From assembly GCF_003334355.1 (NCBI RefSeq), contig NZ_QOWP01000035.1: a stretch of 35,354 nucleotides of DNA; one strand, given 5' to 3'. The position numbers and the translations under genes were made by a program. Under the pieces are notes generated by a model. That model had not been told where the DNA came from and did no database searches. It saw only the letters and a list, made by a program, of their open reading frames with translations. This DNA comes from Escherichia coli (lineage in GTDB: Bacteria > Pseudomonadota > Gammaproteobacteria > Enterobacterales > Enterobacteriaceae). Shown one piece after another: positions 76 to 35,354 of this stretch (positions are counted from its first letter, which is position 1; every line of letters begins with the position of its first letter).

Positions 76-624
76 TCAATAATAGCTCGCGTGAAGTTCT
101 TCCCCATCGAATACCACTGTATTACACAAGAAAGTGACATCGGCATCTTCAATACCAAGATAACTGCACATATTTTTTAAATAATCGCTTATATTTTTTT
201 CCCAGCCCATCTGGACAAATGATTCTTTGTCTCCTCCAACCAGCGCCACCCAACGAACTTTATTGAATGGTAATTTGTGCCCATCTCCATAAGCCAGCCC
301 ATTATTCCATACTCTGTCAATATATCCTTTTAGCATTGCCGGGAAGCTGTACCACCAGAGAGGAAAAACCACCACTAACGTGTCATGTTCAAGCAGCTCT
401 GAATAAAGCTGATGAACCTCTGGAGAATAACGTTTATCCATATTCTTCCAGTCTGGTTCATCTTCCGGCGTCATCACTGGGTTGAAATTACGCCGATATA
501 AATCGAGTTCCGTCACCTGTATTTTCCGCTCCATTGCCCGCTGATGGATCGCATCAGCAATATGTGCGGTCAATGAATCATGACGAGGATGGGCCCATAC
601 CAAATAAATACGTTCAGACTGCAT
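76..624 (-). CDS. ycaK: NAD(P)H oxidoreductase-like flavodoxin-fold protein (KefF/MdaB family), 182 aa
   Basis: ORF track 76..624; ATG at 624 preceded by GGAGG 7 nt upstream; in-frame stop 6 codons upstream rules out N-extension; N-terminus MQSERIYLVWAHP recognised as YcaK. TGA at 76-78; C-terminal length versus reference not verifiable. Confidence 0.85.
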   Translation of the reverse strand: MQSERIYLVWAHPRHDSLTAHIADAIHQRAMERKIQVTELDLYRRNFNPVMTPEDEPDWKNMDKRYSPEVHQLYSELLEHDTLVVVFPLWWYSFPAMLKGYIDRVWNNGLAYGDGHKLPFNKVRWVALVGGDKESFVQMGWEKNISDYLKNMCSYLGIEDADVTFLCNTVVFDGEELHASYY

Positions 625-723
625 AATTTTACCTCCACGTTAAGTTCTGGAGCGCACTTTACGCAGGCGGCATAATCCTGTAAACGTGATGATTCAGGAT
701 GAGTTAATGAAGGATTTTCACTA

Positions 724-1632
724 ATGCGGATGAATATGTCTGACTTTGCCACTTTCTTTGCCGTGGCCCGTAATCAAAGCTTTCGTGCAGCGGGCGATGA
801 GTTAGGCTTATCCTCGTCCGCCATTAGCCATAGTATTAAAACACTGGAACAACGTCTTAAAATTCGCTTATTCAATCGGACAACCCGAAGCGTATCGTTA
901 ACGGAAGCGGGTTCTAATCTCTATGAACGATTGCGCCCAGCTTTCGACGAAATTCAGATCATGTTAGATGAGATGAATGATTTTCGTCTGACACCGACAG
1001 GAACGCTCAAAATCAATGCCGCCCGGGTAGCTGCACGTATATTTTTAATGTCTTTACTGGTTGGTTTCACACGTGAATATCCTGATATTAAAGTCGAGCT
1101 CACAACTGACGACTCTCTTGTCGATATCGTCCAACAGGGCTTTGACGCTGGCGTTCGACTTAGTTGCATCGTCGAAAAAGATATGATCAGCGTGGCGATC
1201 GGCCCGCCAGTGAAATTATGTGTAGCAGCAACGCCAGAGTACTTTGCAAGATATGGCAAACCCCGCCATCCTCATGATCTGCTTAATCATCAATGTGTTG
1301 TTTTTCGTTATCCCAGCGGCAAACCTTTCCACTGGCAATTTGCAAAGGAGCTGGAAATTGCTGTCGCAGGAAATATCATTCTGGATGATGTTGATGCTGA
1401 ACTGGAGGCCGTTTTGATGGGTGCTGGTATCGGGTATCTGCTCTATGAACAGATCAAGGAGTACCTTGATACTGGTCGTTTAGAATGTGTACTGGAAGAC
1501 TGGAGCACAGAGCGTCCAGGCTTCCAGATCTATTATCCAAACCGCCAGTATATGTCCTGCGGCTTGCGCGCATTTCTCGATTATGTAAAAACGGGTCAGA
1601 TCTGCCAGAGTCAGCGTCACCGACCACAATAA
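724..1632 (+). CDS. ycaN: LysR-family transcriptional regulator, 302 aa
   Basis: ORF track; N-terminal HTH (SSSAISHSIKTLEQRL) and LysR substrate-binding domain; divergent from ycaK; ATG at 724. Confidence 0.9.
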   Translation: MRMNMSDFATFFAVARNQSFRAAGDELGLSSSAISHSIKTLEQRLKIRLFNRTTRSVSLTEAGSNLYERLRPAFDEIQIMLDEMNDFRLTPTGTLKINAARVAARIFLMSLLVGFTREYPDIKVELTTDDSLVDIVQQGFDAGVRLSCIVEKDMISVAIGPPVKLCVAATPEYFARYGKPRHPHDLLNHQCVVFRYPSGKPFHWQFAKELEIAVAGNIILDDVDAELEAVLMGAGIGYLLYEQIKEYLDTGRLECVLEDWSTERPGFQIYYPNRQYMSCGLRAFLDYVKTGQICQSQRHRPQ

Positions 1633-3063
1633 TTATTTACTATTCGCTTTACGCGCCAGCAGCGGGAATATCAGTCCTAATCCTACCAGCACAAACGGCG
1701 TTGCAACATTCAGCGCCAACTGGAAGGTCCACTCTGCAGTGAAGGCTTCCATTTTCGGGAAGATCCCCGTCAAACAGGCAAAGGCGGTAAAGGCAAAACA
1801 CCAAATCCCGACGGTCATTGCCAGAGGCTTATTACGAATAAAGACATATTCTGGTTTATATTTCTGCGCCAAGCGAACGACTGCAATAAATGCAACAAAT
1901 ACCCATAAATAACGCAGCGGCATCACTACCGAATTAAGGTTCAACAGCCATTTATAGAGATTGTTCATATCACCAATGCCGAGAGTCGGCAGCATAATCA
2001 GAATCGCCACCAGTACCAGGGTCAGAAAATAGCCATTAACGGGCGTACCAGAAGCGTTGGTACGACATAAACTGGCTGGAATATATTTGCTGTCAGCATC
2101 ACCTAATAGCACTTTAAGCGGGGCATCAATCGAGAATACCAGCGCCGCTACTTGTCCCAGGGTATTCGCAATGGCGTAAATCACCATTAAAGTATTACCC
2201 ATGTTGTAATACTCGCCCAGCTTCTGAAAGGCGTAATACTGACCGTTGGTCATTAAGTCATCCGGGATATTACGCGAATCAAACATCATCCCCATCGCCA
2301 GCGAGCCCAGAATGGCACAAACCGCAACCATCACCGCCAGGCATAACATCCCTTTTGGAAATTCTTTTCCTGGGTTGCGCGTTTGATTAACGTAAGGAGA
2401 AATCTTCTCTGCTCCGCCAACCGCGAAAACCAGCATTGAAATAGTGGTAATGTAGGTAAAGTCGATATGAGGAATGAACGTTTCCCAGGTAATGTTTGTG
2501 GTCGCAATATGCACTTCAGTAATTGCAGGCGCGGTTACCGCCATCGCCACATACAGGAGCGACATAACAAACATAGCAATCCCTGCCACAGAACCGACGA
2601 TTTTCAGCGATTTCATACCGCGTGAAGCAACCCACATAAAGAAGATAAACAGCACCAGCGTTAACCCCTGTAACGCTACGACTGAATATTCTTTGATTAG
2701 CGAACCGTCGCCTTTCATCGCCCAACCGAGCGCAATCAGAATTGCCTGGGGTTTTTGTGCCAGATAGGGAATATGCACCACCCAGTAGGTCCACGCGGCG
2801 AGATAAGCCAGTCCGGGTCCCATCGTGTGTTTAATCCAGGTACTGACCCCGCCCTTCCCATCTTTGAAGGTCGAGCCTAACTGACCAACAATTAGCGCAT
2901 AAGGTGTGAAATAGAGTGCAAAGATAAACACCCATGAAAAAACAACCACCAGCCCCTGGTTGGCATAGTTATTAACAACGTTGCCAAAACCCCAGACAGT
3001 GATAAAAGACATCAGCGCAATGTTGTACCATCGCAACTGTTTTTCCTGAACATTCCCAGCCAT
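1633..3063 (-). CDS. ycaM: APC-family amino acid/polyamine transporter, 476 aa
   Basis: ORF track 1633..3255 trimmed to ATG at 3063 (MAGNVQEKQLRWYN), which has an AAGGA SD; multi-pass membrane protein; stop abuts the ycaN stop. Confidence 0.85.
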   Translation of the reverse strand: MAGNVQEKQLRWYNIALMSFITVWGFGNVVNNYANQGLVVVFSWVFIFALYFTPYALIVGQLGSTFKDGKGGVSTWIKHTMGPGLAYLAAWTYWVVHIPYLAQKPQAILIALGWAMKGDGSLIKEYSVVALQGLTLVLFIFFMWVASRGMKSLKIVGSVAGIAMFVMSLLYVAMAVTAPAITEVHIATTNITWETFIPHIDFTYITTISMLVFAVGGAEKISPYVNQTRNPGKEFPKGMLCLAVMVAVCAILGSLAMGMMFDSRNIPDDLMTNGQYYAFQKLGEYYNMGNTLMVIYAIANTLGQVAALVFSIDAPLKVLLGDADSKYIPASLCRTNASGTPVNGYFLTLVLVAILIMLPTLGIGDMNNLYKWLLNLNSVVMPLRYLWVFVAFIAVVRLAQKYKPEYVFIRNKPLAMTVGIWCFAFTAFACLTGIFPKMEAFTAEWTFQLALNVATPFVLVGLGLIFPLLARKANSK

Positions 3064-3224
3064 AGACAAATCCTTCGCCAAAATTAAAGGGGCATCTGTA
3101 AAACGAGGGATTATGCGCGGCAAATAAGAAGTGCGGAAATAGCGAAATGCAAAATTATAACCTGCTGCACATTTTATTTTTAAACGAATAAAATTTGGAA
3201 TAAAGCAAGTCAGATAGAAGAAAC

Positions 3225-4734: not shown

Positions 4735-5361
4735 ATGACCAAACCGTATGTTCGTCTTGATAAAAATGATGCTGCCGTTTTGCTTGTTGATCACCAGGCT
4801 GGTTTACTTTCCCTTGTACGGGATATCGAACCCGATAAGTTTAAAAATAACGTGCTGGCGCTGGGTGACCTGGCTAAGTATTTCAACTTACCAACTATTC
4901 TTACCACCAGTTTTGAAACCGGTCCTAACGGCCCATTAGTTCCAGAACTGAAAGCACAATTCCCCGATACACCTTACATTGCTCGCCCGGGAAATATTAA
5001 CGCCTGGGATAACGAAGATTTTGTAAAAGCAGTCAAAGCGACAGGTAAAAAACAGTTAATTATTGCCGGTGTGGTAACCGAAGTTTGCGTGGCATTCCCG
5101 GCGCTTTCAGCCATTGAAGAAGGGTTTGACGTCTTTGTCGTGACTGACGCGTCAGGGACCTTTAATGAAATTACCCGGCATTCGGCATGGGATCGCTTGT
5201 CGCAAGCTGGTGCGCAATTGATGACATGGTTCGGCGTGGCGTGCGAGCTGCATCGCGACTGGCGTAATGATATTGAAGGACTGGCGACGTTGTTCTCTAA
5301 CCACATTCCTGATTATCGTAATTTGATGACCAGTTATGACACGTTAACGAAGCAGAAATAA
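4735..5361 (+). CDS. ycaC: Isochorismatase-family hydrolase, 208 aa
   Basis: ORF track; ATG at 4735 with GGAGAAGAGG SD; isochorismatase-like sequence with conserved Cys (VTEVCVAFP). Confidence 0.9.
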   Translation: MTKPYVRLDKNDAAVLLVDHQAGLLSLVRDIEPDKFKNNVLALGDLAKYFNLPTILTTSFETGPNGPLVPELKAQFPDTPYIARPGNINAWDNEDFVKAVKATGKKQLIIAGVVTEVCVAFPALSAIEEGFDVFVVTDASGTFNEITRHSAWDRLSQAGAQLMTWFGVACELHRDWRNDIEGLATLFSNHIPDYRNLMTSYDTLTKQK

Positions 5362-5366
5362 AAGAG

Positions 5367-5388
5367 AACCGGGGCCGAAACCCCGGTT
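5367..5388. terminator. Bidirectional hairpin between convergent ycaC and dmsC
   Basis: aaccgggg-ccgaaa-ccccggtt perfect 8-bp stem, A/T-rich flanks on both sides; lies between the ycaC stop (5361) and dmsC stop (5396). Confidence 0.7.
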
Positions 5389-5395
5389 GTTATGA

Positions 5396-6259
5396 TTAGC
5401 TTGCGACGGCCATCCCCACGGTCATATGCAAACCATAGAATACGCCGCGACCGATTAATTCCCCTGCCAGAAGCAGAATGAATGATACAGAAAGTAGCGG
5501 AACCGCAGGCTGATAACCTTTTAGCTGTGGTGCAATCCACAAGCACAGGGCAACGGCCAAAAGCACGATCCGCCAGGACATCAGCGCACCATAGTCCGGC
5601 ACCAGCGCTGCGGCCTGCTGCACAGAACTATGAATAGTCGCCAGCTCTGCGCCCTGCATCACTGACACCACGCCACTCACTACCAGTGCCAGTACAGAAA
5701 TTGCTGGCAGCAGACGCATCGCCCAGCCATCGACGCCAGCCAGACTCAACAACAGGTAACCCAGTAACGGGCCGCCCATAAACATCGTCAGGAAGAAGCC
5801 CATCGGCGTCCAGATGCTGTACCAGGTCGGAACGGTATCAATGCTGTTATACACACGCACCATCATCCAGACAAAGATGACGCCAAGAACCATCGTCACT
5901 ATCAGCCACAGCGTACGCAATGCCGGTGACAGCTTTTTCAGCATTGCCAGCAACCAGCCGATGCCGCCTACGGCAAAAAAGATCGAACCGCTGGCGATTT
6001 CGTTACTGAGTGCTGAAGCCCCTACCCGGTTGAGCGAGTTAAAAGCGCGCATTGGTGAACCAAGATGGAGCATAGAGGCGATAAAGCCAATGCCCATCAG
6101 CACCCATAAACCAAACATGCAGGCGATAACACGCTGCTGGGCTTCTGCTCGCAGGTCGCCTTTGAGCAGCGCCAAAGCCAGAACGATAAAACCACCTGCT
6201 ACACATTGCCCGAAGACCGTGAAGATCATCAGCGGCCATTCATGCCATCCACTTCCCAT
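5396..6259 (-). CDS. dmsC: DMSO reductase membrane anchor subunit, 287 aa
   Basis: ORF track 5396..6322 trimmed to ATG at 6259 (MGSGWHEWPLMIFT), 1 nt after the dmsB stop; polytopic membrane protein. Confidence 0.9.
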   Translation of the reverse strand: MGSGWHEWPLMIFTVFGQCVAGGFIVLALALLKGDLRAEAQQRVIACMFGLWVLMGIGFIASMLHLGSPMRAFNSLNRVGASALSNEIASGSIFFAVGGIGWLLAMLKKLSPALRTLWLIVTMVLGVIFVWMMVRVYNSIDTVPTWYSIWTPMGFFLTMFMGGPLLGYLLLSLAGVDGWAMRLLPAISVLALVVSGVVSVMQGAELATIHSSVQQAAALVPDYGALMSWRIVLLAVALCLWIAPQLKGYQPAVPLLSVSFILLLAGELIGRGVFYGLHMTVGMAVAS

Positions 6260-9333: not shown

Positions 9334-9503
9334 AATGGCTCACTCAAGCTTGCTCACGATTGATTCCAGTAACAAACCGTATTGTGTAATTATTTCTATA
9401 GCAGCTCGCTATATAGGCTTGTATACATCGAATAATTTGAAAATCAAAGAGATAGGTAGATTTTCACTCGAAAGTAGTATTACGTGTAAGTGAGGAGTAA
9501 TTA

Positions 9504-9517
9504 TTGTTCGGTATCAA
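9504..9517 (-). promoter_or_regulatory. FNR box of the dmsA promoter (TTGAT-N4-AACAA on minus strand)
   Basis: Plus strand ttgttcggtatcaa = minus TTGATaccgAACAA, close to the FNR consensus TTGAT-N4-ATCAA; about 170 bp upstream of dmsA ATG; dmsABC is a known FNR-activated anaerobic operon. Confidence 0.6.
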
Positions 9518-9525
9518 AGGGAGAC

Positions 9526-9551
9526 AAAAAAAGCGCCCGCAGGCGCTTTTT
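9526..9551 (-). terminator. Rho-independent terminator downstream of serS
   Basis: aagcgcc-cgca-ggcgctt hairpin flanked by A6 and T5; on the minus strand the hairpin is followed by a U-run, 21 bp after the serS stop. Confidence 0.75.
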
Positions 9552-9571
9552 AGATTCAGAAAAATTGGGTA

Positions 9572-24447: not shown

Positions 24448-24652
24448 CATTTTATCTGTCTGTACGGCAGTGAACATGGTGGGTGGAGTATGTTACCTGT
24501 GAATTTCTAAGCTGCCTGTACGGCAGTGAACGCCAACTTTCACAGCCTTTGCAAGATTGTTCCTTTCTAAGCTGCCTGTACGGCAGTGAACGTTCGCTGC
24601 AACCGCTAGCCAAGACGGTAGGTTTTTCTAAGCTGCCTGTACGGCAGTGAAC
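24448..24652 (-). CRISPR. Orphan type I-F CRISPR array: 4 repeats (one degenerate), 3 spacers, no adjacent cas genes
   Basis: Perfect 28-bp repeats at 24504-24531, 24564-24591, 24625-24652 (plus strand TTTCTAAGCTGCCTGTACGGCAGTGAAC; minus strand GTTCACTGCCGTACAGGCAGCTTAGAAA, the I-F repeat with CTGCC/GGCAG hairpin); degenerate terminal repeat 24448-24475 keeps the 3' 16 nt; spacers 28, 32 and 33 bp; repeat orientation puts the leader on the clpA side. Confidence 0.9.
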
Positions 24653-31283: not shown

Positions 31284-32276
31284 ATGGTGAAATCGACGTC
31301 ATGTATAACCATTGATTTCATGAATATGTCGCAGCTAACTGAACGGACCTTTACGCCATCTGAATCTCTCAGCAGCCTGTCACTTTTTCTTAGTCTGGCA
31401 CGTGGACAGTGTCGGCCGGGTAAATTCTGGCATCGCCGTAGTTTTCGCCAGAAATTTTTGCTGCGCTCGTTGATTATGCCGCGTTTAAGCGTTGAGTGGA
31501 TGAACGAACTTTCCCACTGGCCTAATCTCAATGTATTGTTAACGCGCCAGCCGCGACTGCCTGTGCGTCTGCATCGCCCTTACCTTGCGGCGAATCTTAG
31601 CCGTAAGCAATTGCTGGAGGCGTTACGTTACCATTATGCGTTACTCCGCGAATGTATGTCGGCGGAAGAATTCAGCTTATATTTGAATACCCCCGGGCTG
31701 CAACTGGCGAAGCTGGAAGGCAAAAACGGCGAGCAGTTCACGCTTGAGCTGACCATGATGATCTCAATGGATAAAGAAGGTGACAGCACAATCCTGTTCC
31801 GCAACAGCGAAGGTATTCCTCTGGCAGAGATCACGTTTACCCTGTGTGAATATCAGGGGAAAAGAACGATGTTTATTGGCGGACTGCAAGGCGCAAAATG
31901 GGAAATTCCACATCAGGAAATCCAGAATGCGACGAAAGCCTGCCACGGGCTATTTCCCAAACGCCTCGTGATGGAAGCGGCCTGTCTGTTTGCCCAACGT
32001 TTGCAGGTAGAGCAGATTATTGCCGTCAGCAATGAAACGCATATTTACCGCAGCCTGCGTTATCGCGATAAAGAAGGCAAGATCCACGCTGATTACAACG
32101 CTTTCTGGGAATCGGTTGGCGGCGTATGTGATGCTGAACGCCATTACCGCCTTCCAGCACAGATAGCACGAAAAGAGATTGCCGAAATCGCCAGTAAAAA
32201 ACGGGCTGAATACCGTCGGCGCTATGAGATGCTCGACGCTATTCAGCCACAAATGGCCACGATGTTTCGCGGTTAA
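31284..32276 (+). CDS. ybjX: VirK-like DUF535-family protein, 330 aa
   Basis: ORF track; ATG at 31284; recognised as YbjX (VirK/SomA homolog); divergent from macAB. Confidence 0.85.
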   Translation: MVKSTSCITIDFMNMSQLTERTFTPSESLSSLSLFLSLARGQCRPGKFWHRRSFRQKFLLRSLIMPRLSVEWMNELSHWPNLNVLLTRQPRLPVRLHRPYLAANLSRKQLLEALRYHYALLRECMSAEEFSLYLNTPGLQLAKLEGKNGEQFTLELTMMISMDKEGDSTILFRNSEGIPLAEITFTLCEYQGKRTMFIGGLQGAKWEIPHQEIQNATKACHGLFPKRLVMEAACLFAQRLQVEQIIAVSNETHIYRSLRYRDKEGKIHADYNAFWESVGGVCDAERHYRLPAQIARKEIAEIASKKRAEYRRRYEMLDAIQPQMATMFRG

Positions 32277-33931
32277 TCCGCGCGACCGCGCGCCAGCCAC
32301 AGCACGCGTGAGAACATTTTTTTCAGCAGCGTCGGTACGGAGTCCACACCACGACGTCCTGCCTCCATTGCCACTTCAATGGCAAGATCGGGTTTGGAAG
32401 AGCGATGGATCGCTTTCGAGATAATTTTGCGTAGATTCATCGGTACATTTTCCGGGATTTGCGCCATGCGGTGGAACACATCGGAAAATCCCTGGCGATA
32501 CATAAAATGTTCCATATCCAGCGCCGGTAACGCCGTTAAATGTTCTCGTTCGGCTTCCCGATCGTTATTCAACAGGCTGCGTACCGTAGCGGCATATTTC
32601 TTCCCTGCTTCATCGCCATCGACCAGTACATGCCATTCAATCCCCATTCGGCGGGCAAATTTAACCAGTGGCTTTAGCCCGGACTGGGCAAACTCAATGA
32701 CCTTGATCCCTTCGGCATCAAAATGATGTCCGCACTGACGCGCCAGTTCATTGATAACCCAGGTTTCCGTTTCCCCTTCCACCAGCAACCAGCAGCGTGC
32801 AAACAGCGATGACGGACGGTTAAAACGAATGTGAAAGGATATGCGTCGGCTATCTTCGGTACTCAAGCCACTCGGCCCCAGACGCCAGGCGGCAACGCGC
32901 GAGGACTCACGTACCAGTCGGCAAACATGCTCTACCGGCGTTAACGAAAGCAACTCACCCGAGTTGGTGGTGGCAATGCGCTGCAATGGCAGAAGATTCA
33001 ACAGATGCCAGGCAACTGAAAGCATAATGGGGTGTAAACGGGTTTCTGGATCTTCGATCAGCAACAATGGACGGGCGTCTTTATCCAGTCGCAATGTGCC
33101 TTTTGCCTGCAACAAAGTAGCAAACAGGCCGAGCAAAATAACCCGATACGAGCGCCCACCAGGTCGGTCAATCATCCGGTTGATGATATCCAGATAGCGC
33201 CAGCTTCGTTGCTCATTGCTGGCTCGCCGCCGCATTAAACGATATCGCGCCTGTCCGGCCCCCTGCTCAGAGAAATAATGCTCAAGCAGCTGTACCATTG
33301 CGGAAAGTCCCTGACGAATCTGCCCATCAGAGAGATTTTGCGGATGTGAGGATAACTCACGGGCGAGGAAATCGAGCTGGCGCGCGGTGACTTCCACATT
33401 AGGGACATTTGGCACCGTGCCGTTACGAATACGGCGCATAAAACGGGCATCACGCAAGCGCAGCACCGGCATTAAACGCACCAGATGGCGTGCCTGATCG
33501 TTAATATCCTCGACATCAATCGGATGTCCGTCTTTATCGAGAAAACTGCGCAGTGTCATCACGCTGCCGTCTTCCGCACTCTCCCCTTCCAGACGATAAA
33601 AAATACGGTGATAGCCATCGGTGCATGGCGTCCAGCACGCTTCCAGCGGCCGATAACGGCGAACCCGATGTCGGCCTGGCAGCGATTCGCGGAAGGTCAA
33701 AATAATATGCAGATGATGTTCTCGCCCGTTGATATCTCCCGGCGGGAACCAGAAATCGTCGCGCTCAAAATGGTAGAGATCTGATTCTGGCGATAGCAGC
33801 AGAGTTAAGGCGTCCAGCAAGCTGGATTTACCCCACGCGTTCTCCCCAATCAGGACGTTGTTTTGTTCCAGCATCAACGACAAACGGTTGATACCGCGAA
33901 AACCCACAATTTCAACGCGCTCAAGAATCAT
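32273..33931 (-). CDS. ybjD: Stand-alone OLD-family ATPase/TOPRIM nuclease, 552 aa
   Basis: ORF track; N-terminal Walker A GENAWGKSS, Walker B-like LLLIEDPETRLHP, C-terminal TOPRIM acidic motifs (LLVEGETE, VLVDGDEAGKK); stop codon overlaps the ybjX stop. Confidence 0.9.
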   Translation of the reverse strand: MILERVEIVGFRGINRLSLMLEQNNVLIGENAWGKSSLLDALTLLLSPESDLYHFERDDFWFPPGDINGREHHLHIILTFRESLPGRHRVRRYRPLEACWTPCTDGYHRIFYRLEGESAEDGSVMTLRSFLDKDGHPIDVEDINDQARHLVRLMPVLRLRDARFMRRIRNGTVPNVPNVEVTARQLDFLARELSSHPQNLSDGQIRQGLSAMVQLLEHYFSEQGAGQARYRLMRRRASNEQRSWRYLDIINRMIDRPGGRSYRVILLGLFATLLQAKGTLRLDKDARPLLLIEDPETRLHPIMLSVAWHLLNLLPLQRIATTNSGELLSLTPVEHVCRLVRESSRVAAWRLGPSGLSTEDSRRISFHIRFNRPSSLFARCWLLVEGETETWVINELARQCGHHFDAEGIKVIEFAQSGLKPLVKFARRMGIEWHVLVDGDEAGKKYAATVRSLLNNDREAEREHLTALPALDMEHFMYRQGFSDVFHRMAQIPENVPMNLRKIISKAIHRSSKPDLAIEVAMEAGRRGVDSVPTLLKKMFSRVLWLARGRAD

Positions 33932-35207: not shown

Positions 35208-35354
35208 ACCCCCGGGCTCTGGCGAACAAAATCGCCGCTGCGCGGTGCCCTCGACTTATCCCTTACGGCTACCGGGTCGGGCGCGAGGTAACATATATGG
35301 ACGCTCCCGGAATGCAATGCTTTCTTCAGTTATGTAATAAAACGGGTAGGTGCA

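Follow-up and report, generated by a model that had tools for sequence, protein, structure and literature searches.

The analyzed window, a stretch of 35,354 nucleotides of the Escherichia coli chromosome (RefSeq assembly GCF_003334355.1, contig NZ_QOWP01000035.1), contains two pairs of convergent genes whose coding regions meet at their stop codons, ycaN/ycaM and ybjX/ybjD. The gene span of the window comprises aqpZ and ybjD through ycaK, and its sequence is 99.65% identical to the reverse complement of the corresponding part of K-12 MG1655 (window 79-35294, K-12 approximately 915.1-950.2 kb). By megablast, both junction regions match 5425 of the 5426 complete E. coli genomes, in which the genes bear the same names. 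The ycaN gene (724..1632, plus strand) encodes a LysR-family regulator of 302 aa and ends with TAA at 1630-1632. The ycaM gene (1633..3063, minus strand) encodes an APC-family permease, 476 aa long in the K-12 annotation, and its stop codon occupies 1633-1635 (TTA on the plus strand). The spacing between them is 0 nt, TAA being followed directly by TTA, and the two abutting gene ends, each of the form ...AA-TAA, can be read from the sequence as a perfect, strandless palindrome of 10 nt, AATAATTATT, at 1628..1637. In the second pair, ybjX (31284..32276, plus strand) encodes a VirK/YbjX family protein of 330 aa as annotated, and ybjD (32273..33931, minus strand) a class 1 OLD-family ATPase/Toprim protein of 552 aa. 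The ybjX stop codon is TAA at 32274-32276 and the ybjD stop codon is TAA at 32273-32275 of the other strand, so that the strandless tetramer TTAA (32273..32276) is common to both, the stops share its central TA (2 nt) and the coding regions overlap by 4 nt.

The RefSeq annotation of K-12 places all four ends identically (ycaM 947229..948659 and ycaN c948660..949568; ybjD 916473..918131 and ybjX c918128..919120). A preliminary description of the window had the ycaN TAA directly adjoining the ycaM stop and the ybjX and ybjD stops overlapping, and both contacts were confirmed from the sequence, the list of open reading frames and the K-12 annotation. Its further statement that neither pair leaves room for an intergenic terminator holds for the spacings (0 nt and -4 nt); however, a terminator can lie within the partner gene, as does a candidate hairpin with six U residues inside ybjX that is described below. 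Since there is no intergenic DNA, whatever ends each transcript sits inside the partner gene. For ybjX/ybjD the overlap of the transcripts is forced, because each mRNA must include its own stop codon and the stop codons themselves overlap.

Contacts of this kind are well represented in prokaryotic genomes. The 4-nt convergent overlap of stop codons was reported as the commonest single class of convergent overlap, with four four-base sequences (CTAA, TTAA, CTAG, TTAG) behind the spike at this length; among 58 prokaryotes, 672 of 1890 convergent overlaps were shorter than 5 nt, and the count for E. coli was 58 (Lillo and Krakauer 2007, PMC2174442). The ybjX/ybjD pair is a member of this class by its TTAA, both stops lying on the central TA, whereas ycaN/ycaM is convergent but stands outside it, the genes abutting at 0 nt. 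A later published count for E. coli gave 75 convergent overlaps among 4131 adjacent pairs. At the level of transcripts, 276 of 370 convergent operons of E. coli (75%) were found to overlap at their 3' ends, by 286 nt on average (Conway et al. 2014, PMC4161252). In the K-12 stretch that matches the window, six pairs converge, at distances of -4, 72, 343, 34, 0 and 81 nt, and the probability of two of six junctions at a spacing of 0 nt or less is about 0.1 by a rough estimate which assumes that approximately 1 in 10 convergent pairs overlap. The touching junctions do not exceed what is expected by chance or from the genomic background. Complementary 3' ends are likewise known for dnaQ-rnh, for ilvA-ilvY and for convergent operons in general, in which terminators are absent, weak or located inside the neighbor (PMC4161252). 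In contrast to dnaQ-rnh and ilvA-ilvY, the coding regions of ybjX/ybjD and of ycaN/ycaM touch, so that their overlap is obligatory and not a matter of leaky termination. Both pairs are a common, ordinary arrangement for E. coli, already cataloged as transcriptionally overlapping, and present nothing new in this respect.

Transcript ends at the two junctions

For one of the four transcript directions, that of ybjX, a termination region has been mapped with bicyclomycin. The tables of Adams et al. (2021, eLife, PMC7815308) list a Rho termination region antisense to ybjD at K-12 917246(-), with a Rho score of 15.9 and a p value of 7e-53. The reads in windows of 800 nt upstream and downstream of this position, as tabulated there, numbered 299 and 18 without bicyclomycin and 568 and 545 with it. 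When the window is aligned with K-12, the position falls precisely on window 33158(+), which is 882 nt beyond the stop codon of ybjX. As ybjX lies on the minus strand of K-12 and the peak maps to window 33158(+), these published data show that transcription of the ybjX strand continues in antisense over more than half of ybjD (about 0.9 kb) and is ended by Rho. The data and the mapping together define a transcribed 3' extension of ybjX (32277..33158, plus strand) that is antisense to the 3' half of ybjD and ends in the Rho-dependent region. It resembles most of the entries inspected in the table of Adams et al., which are bicyclomycin-sensitive terminations of antisense or 3'-extended transcripts. 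Unlike for ybjX, the tables of that study call no Rho region for the directions of ycaN, ycaM or ybjD. A promoter scan of the plus strand found no sigma-70 consensus between 32276 and 33158, which fits read-through from ybjX and is not a proof of it. C-rich and G-poor windows of 78 nt occur from +274 to +508 after the ybjX stop (C/G 1.6-2.15), against a background in the window with a 95th percentile of 1.77 and a 99th percentile of 2.33; the specificity of this criterion is low. Windows of 78 nt with C/G of at least 1.5 are present downstream of all four stop codons.

Both pairs, as ybjD-ybjX and ycaM-ycaN, are among the 165 convergent excludons of MG1655 in Table 1 of Sanmartin et al. (NAR 2025, PMC12288877), obtained with ExcludonFinder, and each entry stands for detection in at least 50% of 58 strand-specific RNA-seq samples. 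This listing and the geometry of the stop codons bear out the view of the preliminary description that the transcripts overlap as 3' antisense RNAs. The concept is also that of the earlier text, namely overlapping 3' transcripts with possible interference, to which the published work adds cleavage by RNase III. ExcludonFinder demands that coverage beyond the coding region stays above 50% of the gene mean, which any expressed pair at a spacing of 0 nt or less will satisfy almost automatically. The class of excludons requires mutually exclusive expression, whereas these two pairs were placed in it by RNA-seq coverage alone; the same publication counts 141 excludons confirmed by Nanopore sequencing. 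Capture of double-stranded RNA (dsRNA) with p19 was unable to validate convergent excludons in E. coli (PMC12288877).

On the ybjD side, a candidate intrinsic terminator is located at 32197..32248 (minus strand), within the last approximately 26 codons of ybjX. It consists of a hairpin with arms of 15 nt (32204-32218 and 32234-32248; dG -26.9 kcal/mol, z -5.8 against shuffled sequence), followed by CG and six U residues (32202-32197), and it sits 76 nt past the ybjD stop, within the ybjX coding region. Only three hairpins on the minus strand of the window combine a stem of 13 bp or more with a T-rich tail, and the shuffled sequences have none; the other two stand immediately after ycaD and clpA, at the places expected for the terminators of these genes, and for that of ycaD a Term-seq 3' end is listed at window 3223. 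Because it belongs to the same rare class as the hairpins at the ends of ycaD and clpA, which is lacking from the shuffled sequences, the hairpin inside ybjX is rated a good candidate for an embedded intrinsic terminator of ybjD, and it would make an overlap of about 76 nt obligatory. A scan for consensus terminators reported only its inner 5 bp, because of a loop limit, and found no plausible terminator downstream of ycaN or of ybjX on the plus strand. At K-12 position ~918207(+), which corresponds to the U-tract of the hairpin, no RNA 3' end is listed in the Term-seq tables of Adams et al. (PMC7815308); low expression may explain this.

The ends of ycaN and ycaM have no structure of comparable quality. 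Within ycaN, a weak hairpin (1587..1625, minus strand) is followed by five U residues 42-46 nt past the ycaM stop; with a z of -0.7 it is no better than shuffled sequence, and as a terminator it was retained as a nominal candidate only. A strandless inverted repeat with arms of 13 bp, also in ycaN (1492..1527, 106-141 nt past the ycaM stop), is more stable (dG -20.9 kcal/mol, z -4.6 on the plus strand) and has no U-tract on the minus strand. This palindrome is partly dictated by the codons of the conserved motif LE(D/E)W...PGFQ and is kept only partly in orthologues. In the direction of ycaN, the terminator scan found nothing terminator-like on the plus strand before 2949. The C/G ratio is 1.57 in the first 78 nt after the ycaN stop and reaches 2.45 at +157 to +273 after the ycaM stop. 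Since convincing intrinsic terminators are lacking and stretches with more C than G lie 0-270 nt downstream, we infer that the transcripts of both genes are probably ended by Rho once the ribosomes leave at the stop codon.

Conservation and history of the junctions

The ybjX/ybjD junction was compared in 12 genomes, namely the window and 11 loci with both genes out of 13 that were found by a scan for YbjX with one genome per species. They represent E. coli, E. albertii, E. whittamii and cryptic clades of Escherichia, together with three Citrobacter genomes and two from unclassified Enterobacteriaceae. No locus of Salmonella or Klebsiella was returned because the peptide patterns were too strict, and the statements on conservation apply to Escherichia, Citrobacter and the two unclassified genomes. 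The 4-nt overlap is present in 12 of 12 genomes, down to a YbjX identity of 48% in the two unclassified Enterobacteriaceae. The shared tetramer always has the form [T/C]TA[A/G]; in one genome it is CTAG instead of TTAA, both stop codons having changed from TAA to TAG together. Judged from these alignments, the overlap is old and stable, as if frozen. Such stability is expected, because the shared TA cannot change without the loss of both stops. Over its whole length, C-terminus included, YbjD shows 85-99% identity in the same genomes in which YbjX identity ranges from 48% to 98%. This much stronger conservation of YbjD than of its neighbor is unusual for a presumed defense gene. At the other end of ybjX, a 2025 study of Shigella placed the start of transcription 18 bp past the ATG of the annotation and reported direct activation of the gene by PhoPQ (PMC12562796). 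As transcription in Shigella starts past the annotated ATG, the annotated YbjX of 330 aa is probably about 20 residues too long at its N-terminus.

In the alignment of the ybjD hairpin over the 12 genomes, 90% of the cells are paired and there are no double changes, a result no better than that of shuffles; the arms are also YbjX coding sequence. The U-tract is weaker in Citrobacter. An apparent change from C-G to U-A in E. albertii proved to be a mis-registration, the actual pair being U-G. A small hairpin across the stop codons of ybjX and ybjD (CGCGG-TTAAT-CCGCG; dG -10.5 kcal/mol, z -2.6) was dismissed as a product of chance, since its pairing is disrupted in most of the other sequences from Escherichia and Citrobacter.

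The history of ycaN/ycaM is different. The conserved unit is the divergent pair ycaK-ycaN, and the gene downstream of ycaN varies among the four other genera that were inspected. In Pseudocitrobacter it is ycaD, overlapping by 28 nt; a genome of the Budviciaceae has a sensor kinase gene there, with 11 nt of overlap; Hafnia has an EamA gene in the same direction as ycaN; and in Shimwellia ycaD follows at a gap of 39 nt. In none of the four does ycaM stand beside ycaN. Homology of YcaN stops near residue 289, and the last approximately 13 residues of the E. coli protein are unconserved and of variable length among orthologues; the ycaN reading frame thus simply runs to the first stop codon. Within E. 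coli, the full junction is present in approximately 3320 of 5426 genomes and is wholly or partly deleted in approximately 2100 (about 40%). In about 1000 genomes, O157:H7 among them, ycaK and the greater part of ycaN are gone, and a ycaN remnant of 111 nt still abuts an intact ycaM. The right endpoint of this O157-type deletion, where homology resumes at about 1520, falls within the hairpin at 1492-1527. A further approximately 1060 genomes are without the whole ycaK-ycaN-ycaM block (window ~79-3223), and in these pflA converges directly on ycaD. The gene order pflA-ycaK-ycaN-ycaD of Shimwellia and Pseudocitrobacter suggests an insertion of ycaM in the Escherichia lineage, with the absences being due to deletion. 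On this comparative evidence the abutment looks like a lineage-restricted by-product of a change in gene order beside an unconstrained C-terminal tail of YcaN, and the pattern of presence and absence speaks against a strongly selected interplay of ycaN and ycaM.

Other features of the window

Both edges of the window differ from K-12. Positions 1-78 match the ends of IS3-family (IS1203-like) elements, which many plasmids and chromosomes of E. coli carry, and the chromosomal matches to the ycaK region all begin at base 79. The ycaK reading frame (76..624, minus strand) has 182 aa in the window and 196 aa in K-12, and an IS insertion appears to have taken place in the 3' end of the gene; the window therefore comes from a strain other than K-12 MG1655. 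The last 60 bases (35295-35354) have no alignment to K-12, the corresponding K-12 position lying between aqpZ and lysO. The IS end on the left and the unaligned sequence on the right suggest that the window carries strain-specific sequence at either end.

At the Rfam gathering score no family was matched at either of the two junctions; the matches in the window are STnc130, tRNA-Ser and three copies of CRISPR-DR4, all located elsewhere. STnc130, an enterobacterial small RNA family, is matched in full length at 9424-9558 (plus strand, 140 bits), just upstream of dmsA and on the opposite strand. The three CRISPR-DR4 repeats of 28 nt (GTTCACTGCCGTACAGGCAGCTTAGAAA on the minus strand) span 24504-24652, with spacers of 32-33 nt, between clpA and tRNA-Ser/infA; the window is without cas genes. 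The repeat is one that we take to be of type I-F. K-12 is unaligned across 24531-24625 and appears to be about one repeat-spacer unit shorter than the window. The convergent pair dmsC/ycaC (window ~5361-5396) has a spacer of 34 nt in the K-12 annotation, which leaves little room for separate terminators.

Interpretation of the overlaps

Both junctions are, with good confidence, explained as obligatory and probably incidental 3' overlaps that result from Rho-dependent termination (published for ybjX, presumed for ycaN and ycaM) and from an embedded intrinsic terminator predicted for ybjD. Under this explanation the mRNA 3' ends would be complementary whenever both genes of a pair are transcribed. 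The ybjX transcript would run about 0.9 kb into ybjD in antisense before being stopped by Rho, the ybjD transcript would end at the hairpin and its six U residues 76 nt inside ybjX, and the ycaN and ycaM transcripts would be ended by Rho inside the partner gene after release of the ribosomes. Regulatory cross-talk within either pair is most likely small and incidental.

Several points weigh against this explanation. The tables of Adams et al. (PMC7815308), consulted by gene name and by coordinates near both junctions, list no curated Term-seq 3' end for any of the four genes, which low expression in LB and M63 could explain. The predicted ybjD terminator and the Rho-dependent ends proposed for ycaN, ycaM and ybjD have no Term-seq 3' ends and hence are candidates only. 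The antisense RNA over ybjD could come from an unmapped internal promoter instead of the ybjX promoter. On antisense strands, windows with more C than G are frequent; as evidence for Rho utilization (rut) sites they are weak. Compensatory changes are lacking from the ybjD hairpin in the 12 genomes, where the codons of YbjX constrain the arms too. Finally, pairs of the excludon type were reported to show, as a class, less co-expression in single cells (PMC12288877), which leaves functional interference some probability.

It is improbable that the overlaps are functional convergent excludons, selected for repression of the partner by collision of RNA polymerases and/or cleavage of the duplex by RNase III; the two genes of a pair would then be expressed in mutual exclusion, as with PhoPQ-induced ybjX silencing ybjD, or ycaN against ycaM. 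Both pairs do belong to the published excludome, whose members as a class combine the reduced co-expression just mentioned with higher synteny (PMC12288877). For ybjX/ybjD, such a role would be in keeping with the antisense transcript over approximately 880 nt of ybjD in the tables of Adams et al. (PMC7815308), with the activation of ybjX by PhoPQ in Shigella (PMC12562796), with the conservation of the arrangement across genera and with the published observation that ybjD has no phage phenotype at its chromosomal level, whereas on induction it restricts some phages and shows mild toxicity. However, the evidence from the excludome concerns the class and not these pairs, the classification is nearly automatic at spacings of 0 nt or less, p19 capture of dsRNA could not validate convergent cases (PMC12288877), and convergent operons overlap anyway in 75% of cases (PMC4161252). 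The conservation of the shared stops is accounted for by the double constraint on TA, and ycaN is deleted in approximately 40% of E. coli genomes, with ycaM intact in about 1000 of these.

Convergent E. coli pairs have also been described, from SEnd-seq and single-molecule work, in which head-on RNA polymerases terminate in both directions at a shared hairpin (Wang et al. 2022, bioRxiv 10.1101/2022.10.23.513370). That collision of this kind, and not Rho or a classical intrinsic terminator, sets both 3' ends of the present pairs is quite unlikely. As in the described overlapping bidirectional terminators, the genes are convergent and a strong palindromic hairpin (32204-32248) that forms in both transcripts is close to the ybjX/ybjD junction; a second hairpin (1492-1527) is available 106-141 nt past the ycaM stop. 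However, the former lies upstream of the stop codon of ybjX itself, so that transcripts stopping there would be non-stop mRNAs, and termination on the ybjX side is sensitive to bicyclomycin and takes place some 0.9 kb beyond, in contrast to the described bidirectional terminators, which do not depend on Rho; the defining features of that system are thus absent from ybjX/ybjD. Collision also presupposes that both sides are transcribed often, and the tables of Adams et al. list neither a Rho region nor a curated Term-seq 3' end for three of the four directions. An annotation artefact, by which one gene end of each pair would be wrong and the genes would not touch, has a negligible chance of being correct in spite of the unconserved last ~13 residues of YcaN and the probably mis-annotated start of ybjX (Shigella transcription start 18 bp past the ATG), since the 3' ends are the unambiguous first in-frame stops, those of ybjX and ybjD hold the same position in 12 of 12 genomes, YbjD is 85-99% identical up to and including its C-terminus, and errors in start codons leave a 3' junction unaffected.

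As a discovery, the obligatory overlaps carry little weight, touching and overlapping convergent ends being well described in bacterial genomes. It is a speculative and rather doubtful extension that PhoPQ-driven read-through from ybjX serves as a cis brake on ybjD (oldB), a mildly toxic class 1 OLD anti-phage gene. If true, such a brake would explain the silence of chromosomal ybjD as against the phage phenotype of the induced gene, and a defense-gene excludon tied to envelope stress and Mg2+ signaling would include both the conserved 4-nt overlap of the stops and the terminator inside ybjX. Under the explanation preferred here, by Rho and an embedded terminator, the genes at the junction carry their terminators inside the neighbor, Rho-dependent for ybjX and a candidate intrinsic one for ybjD. 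Hence a deletion or insertion in one gene, as in the Keio alleles of ybjX or ybjD, may change where the mRNA of the other ends and how stable it is.

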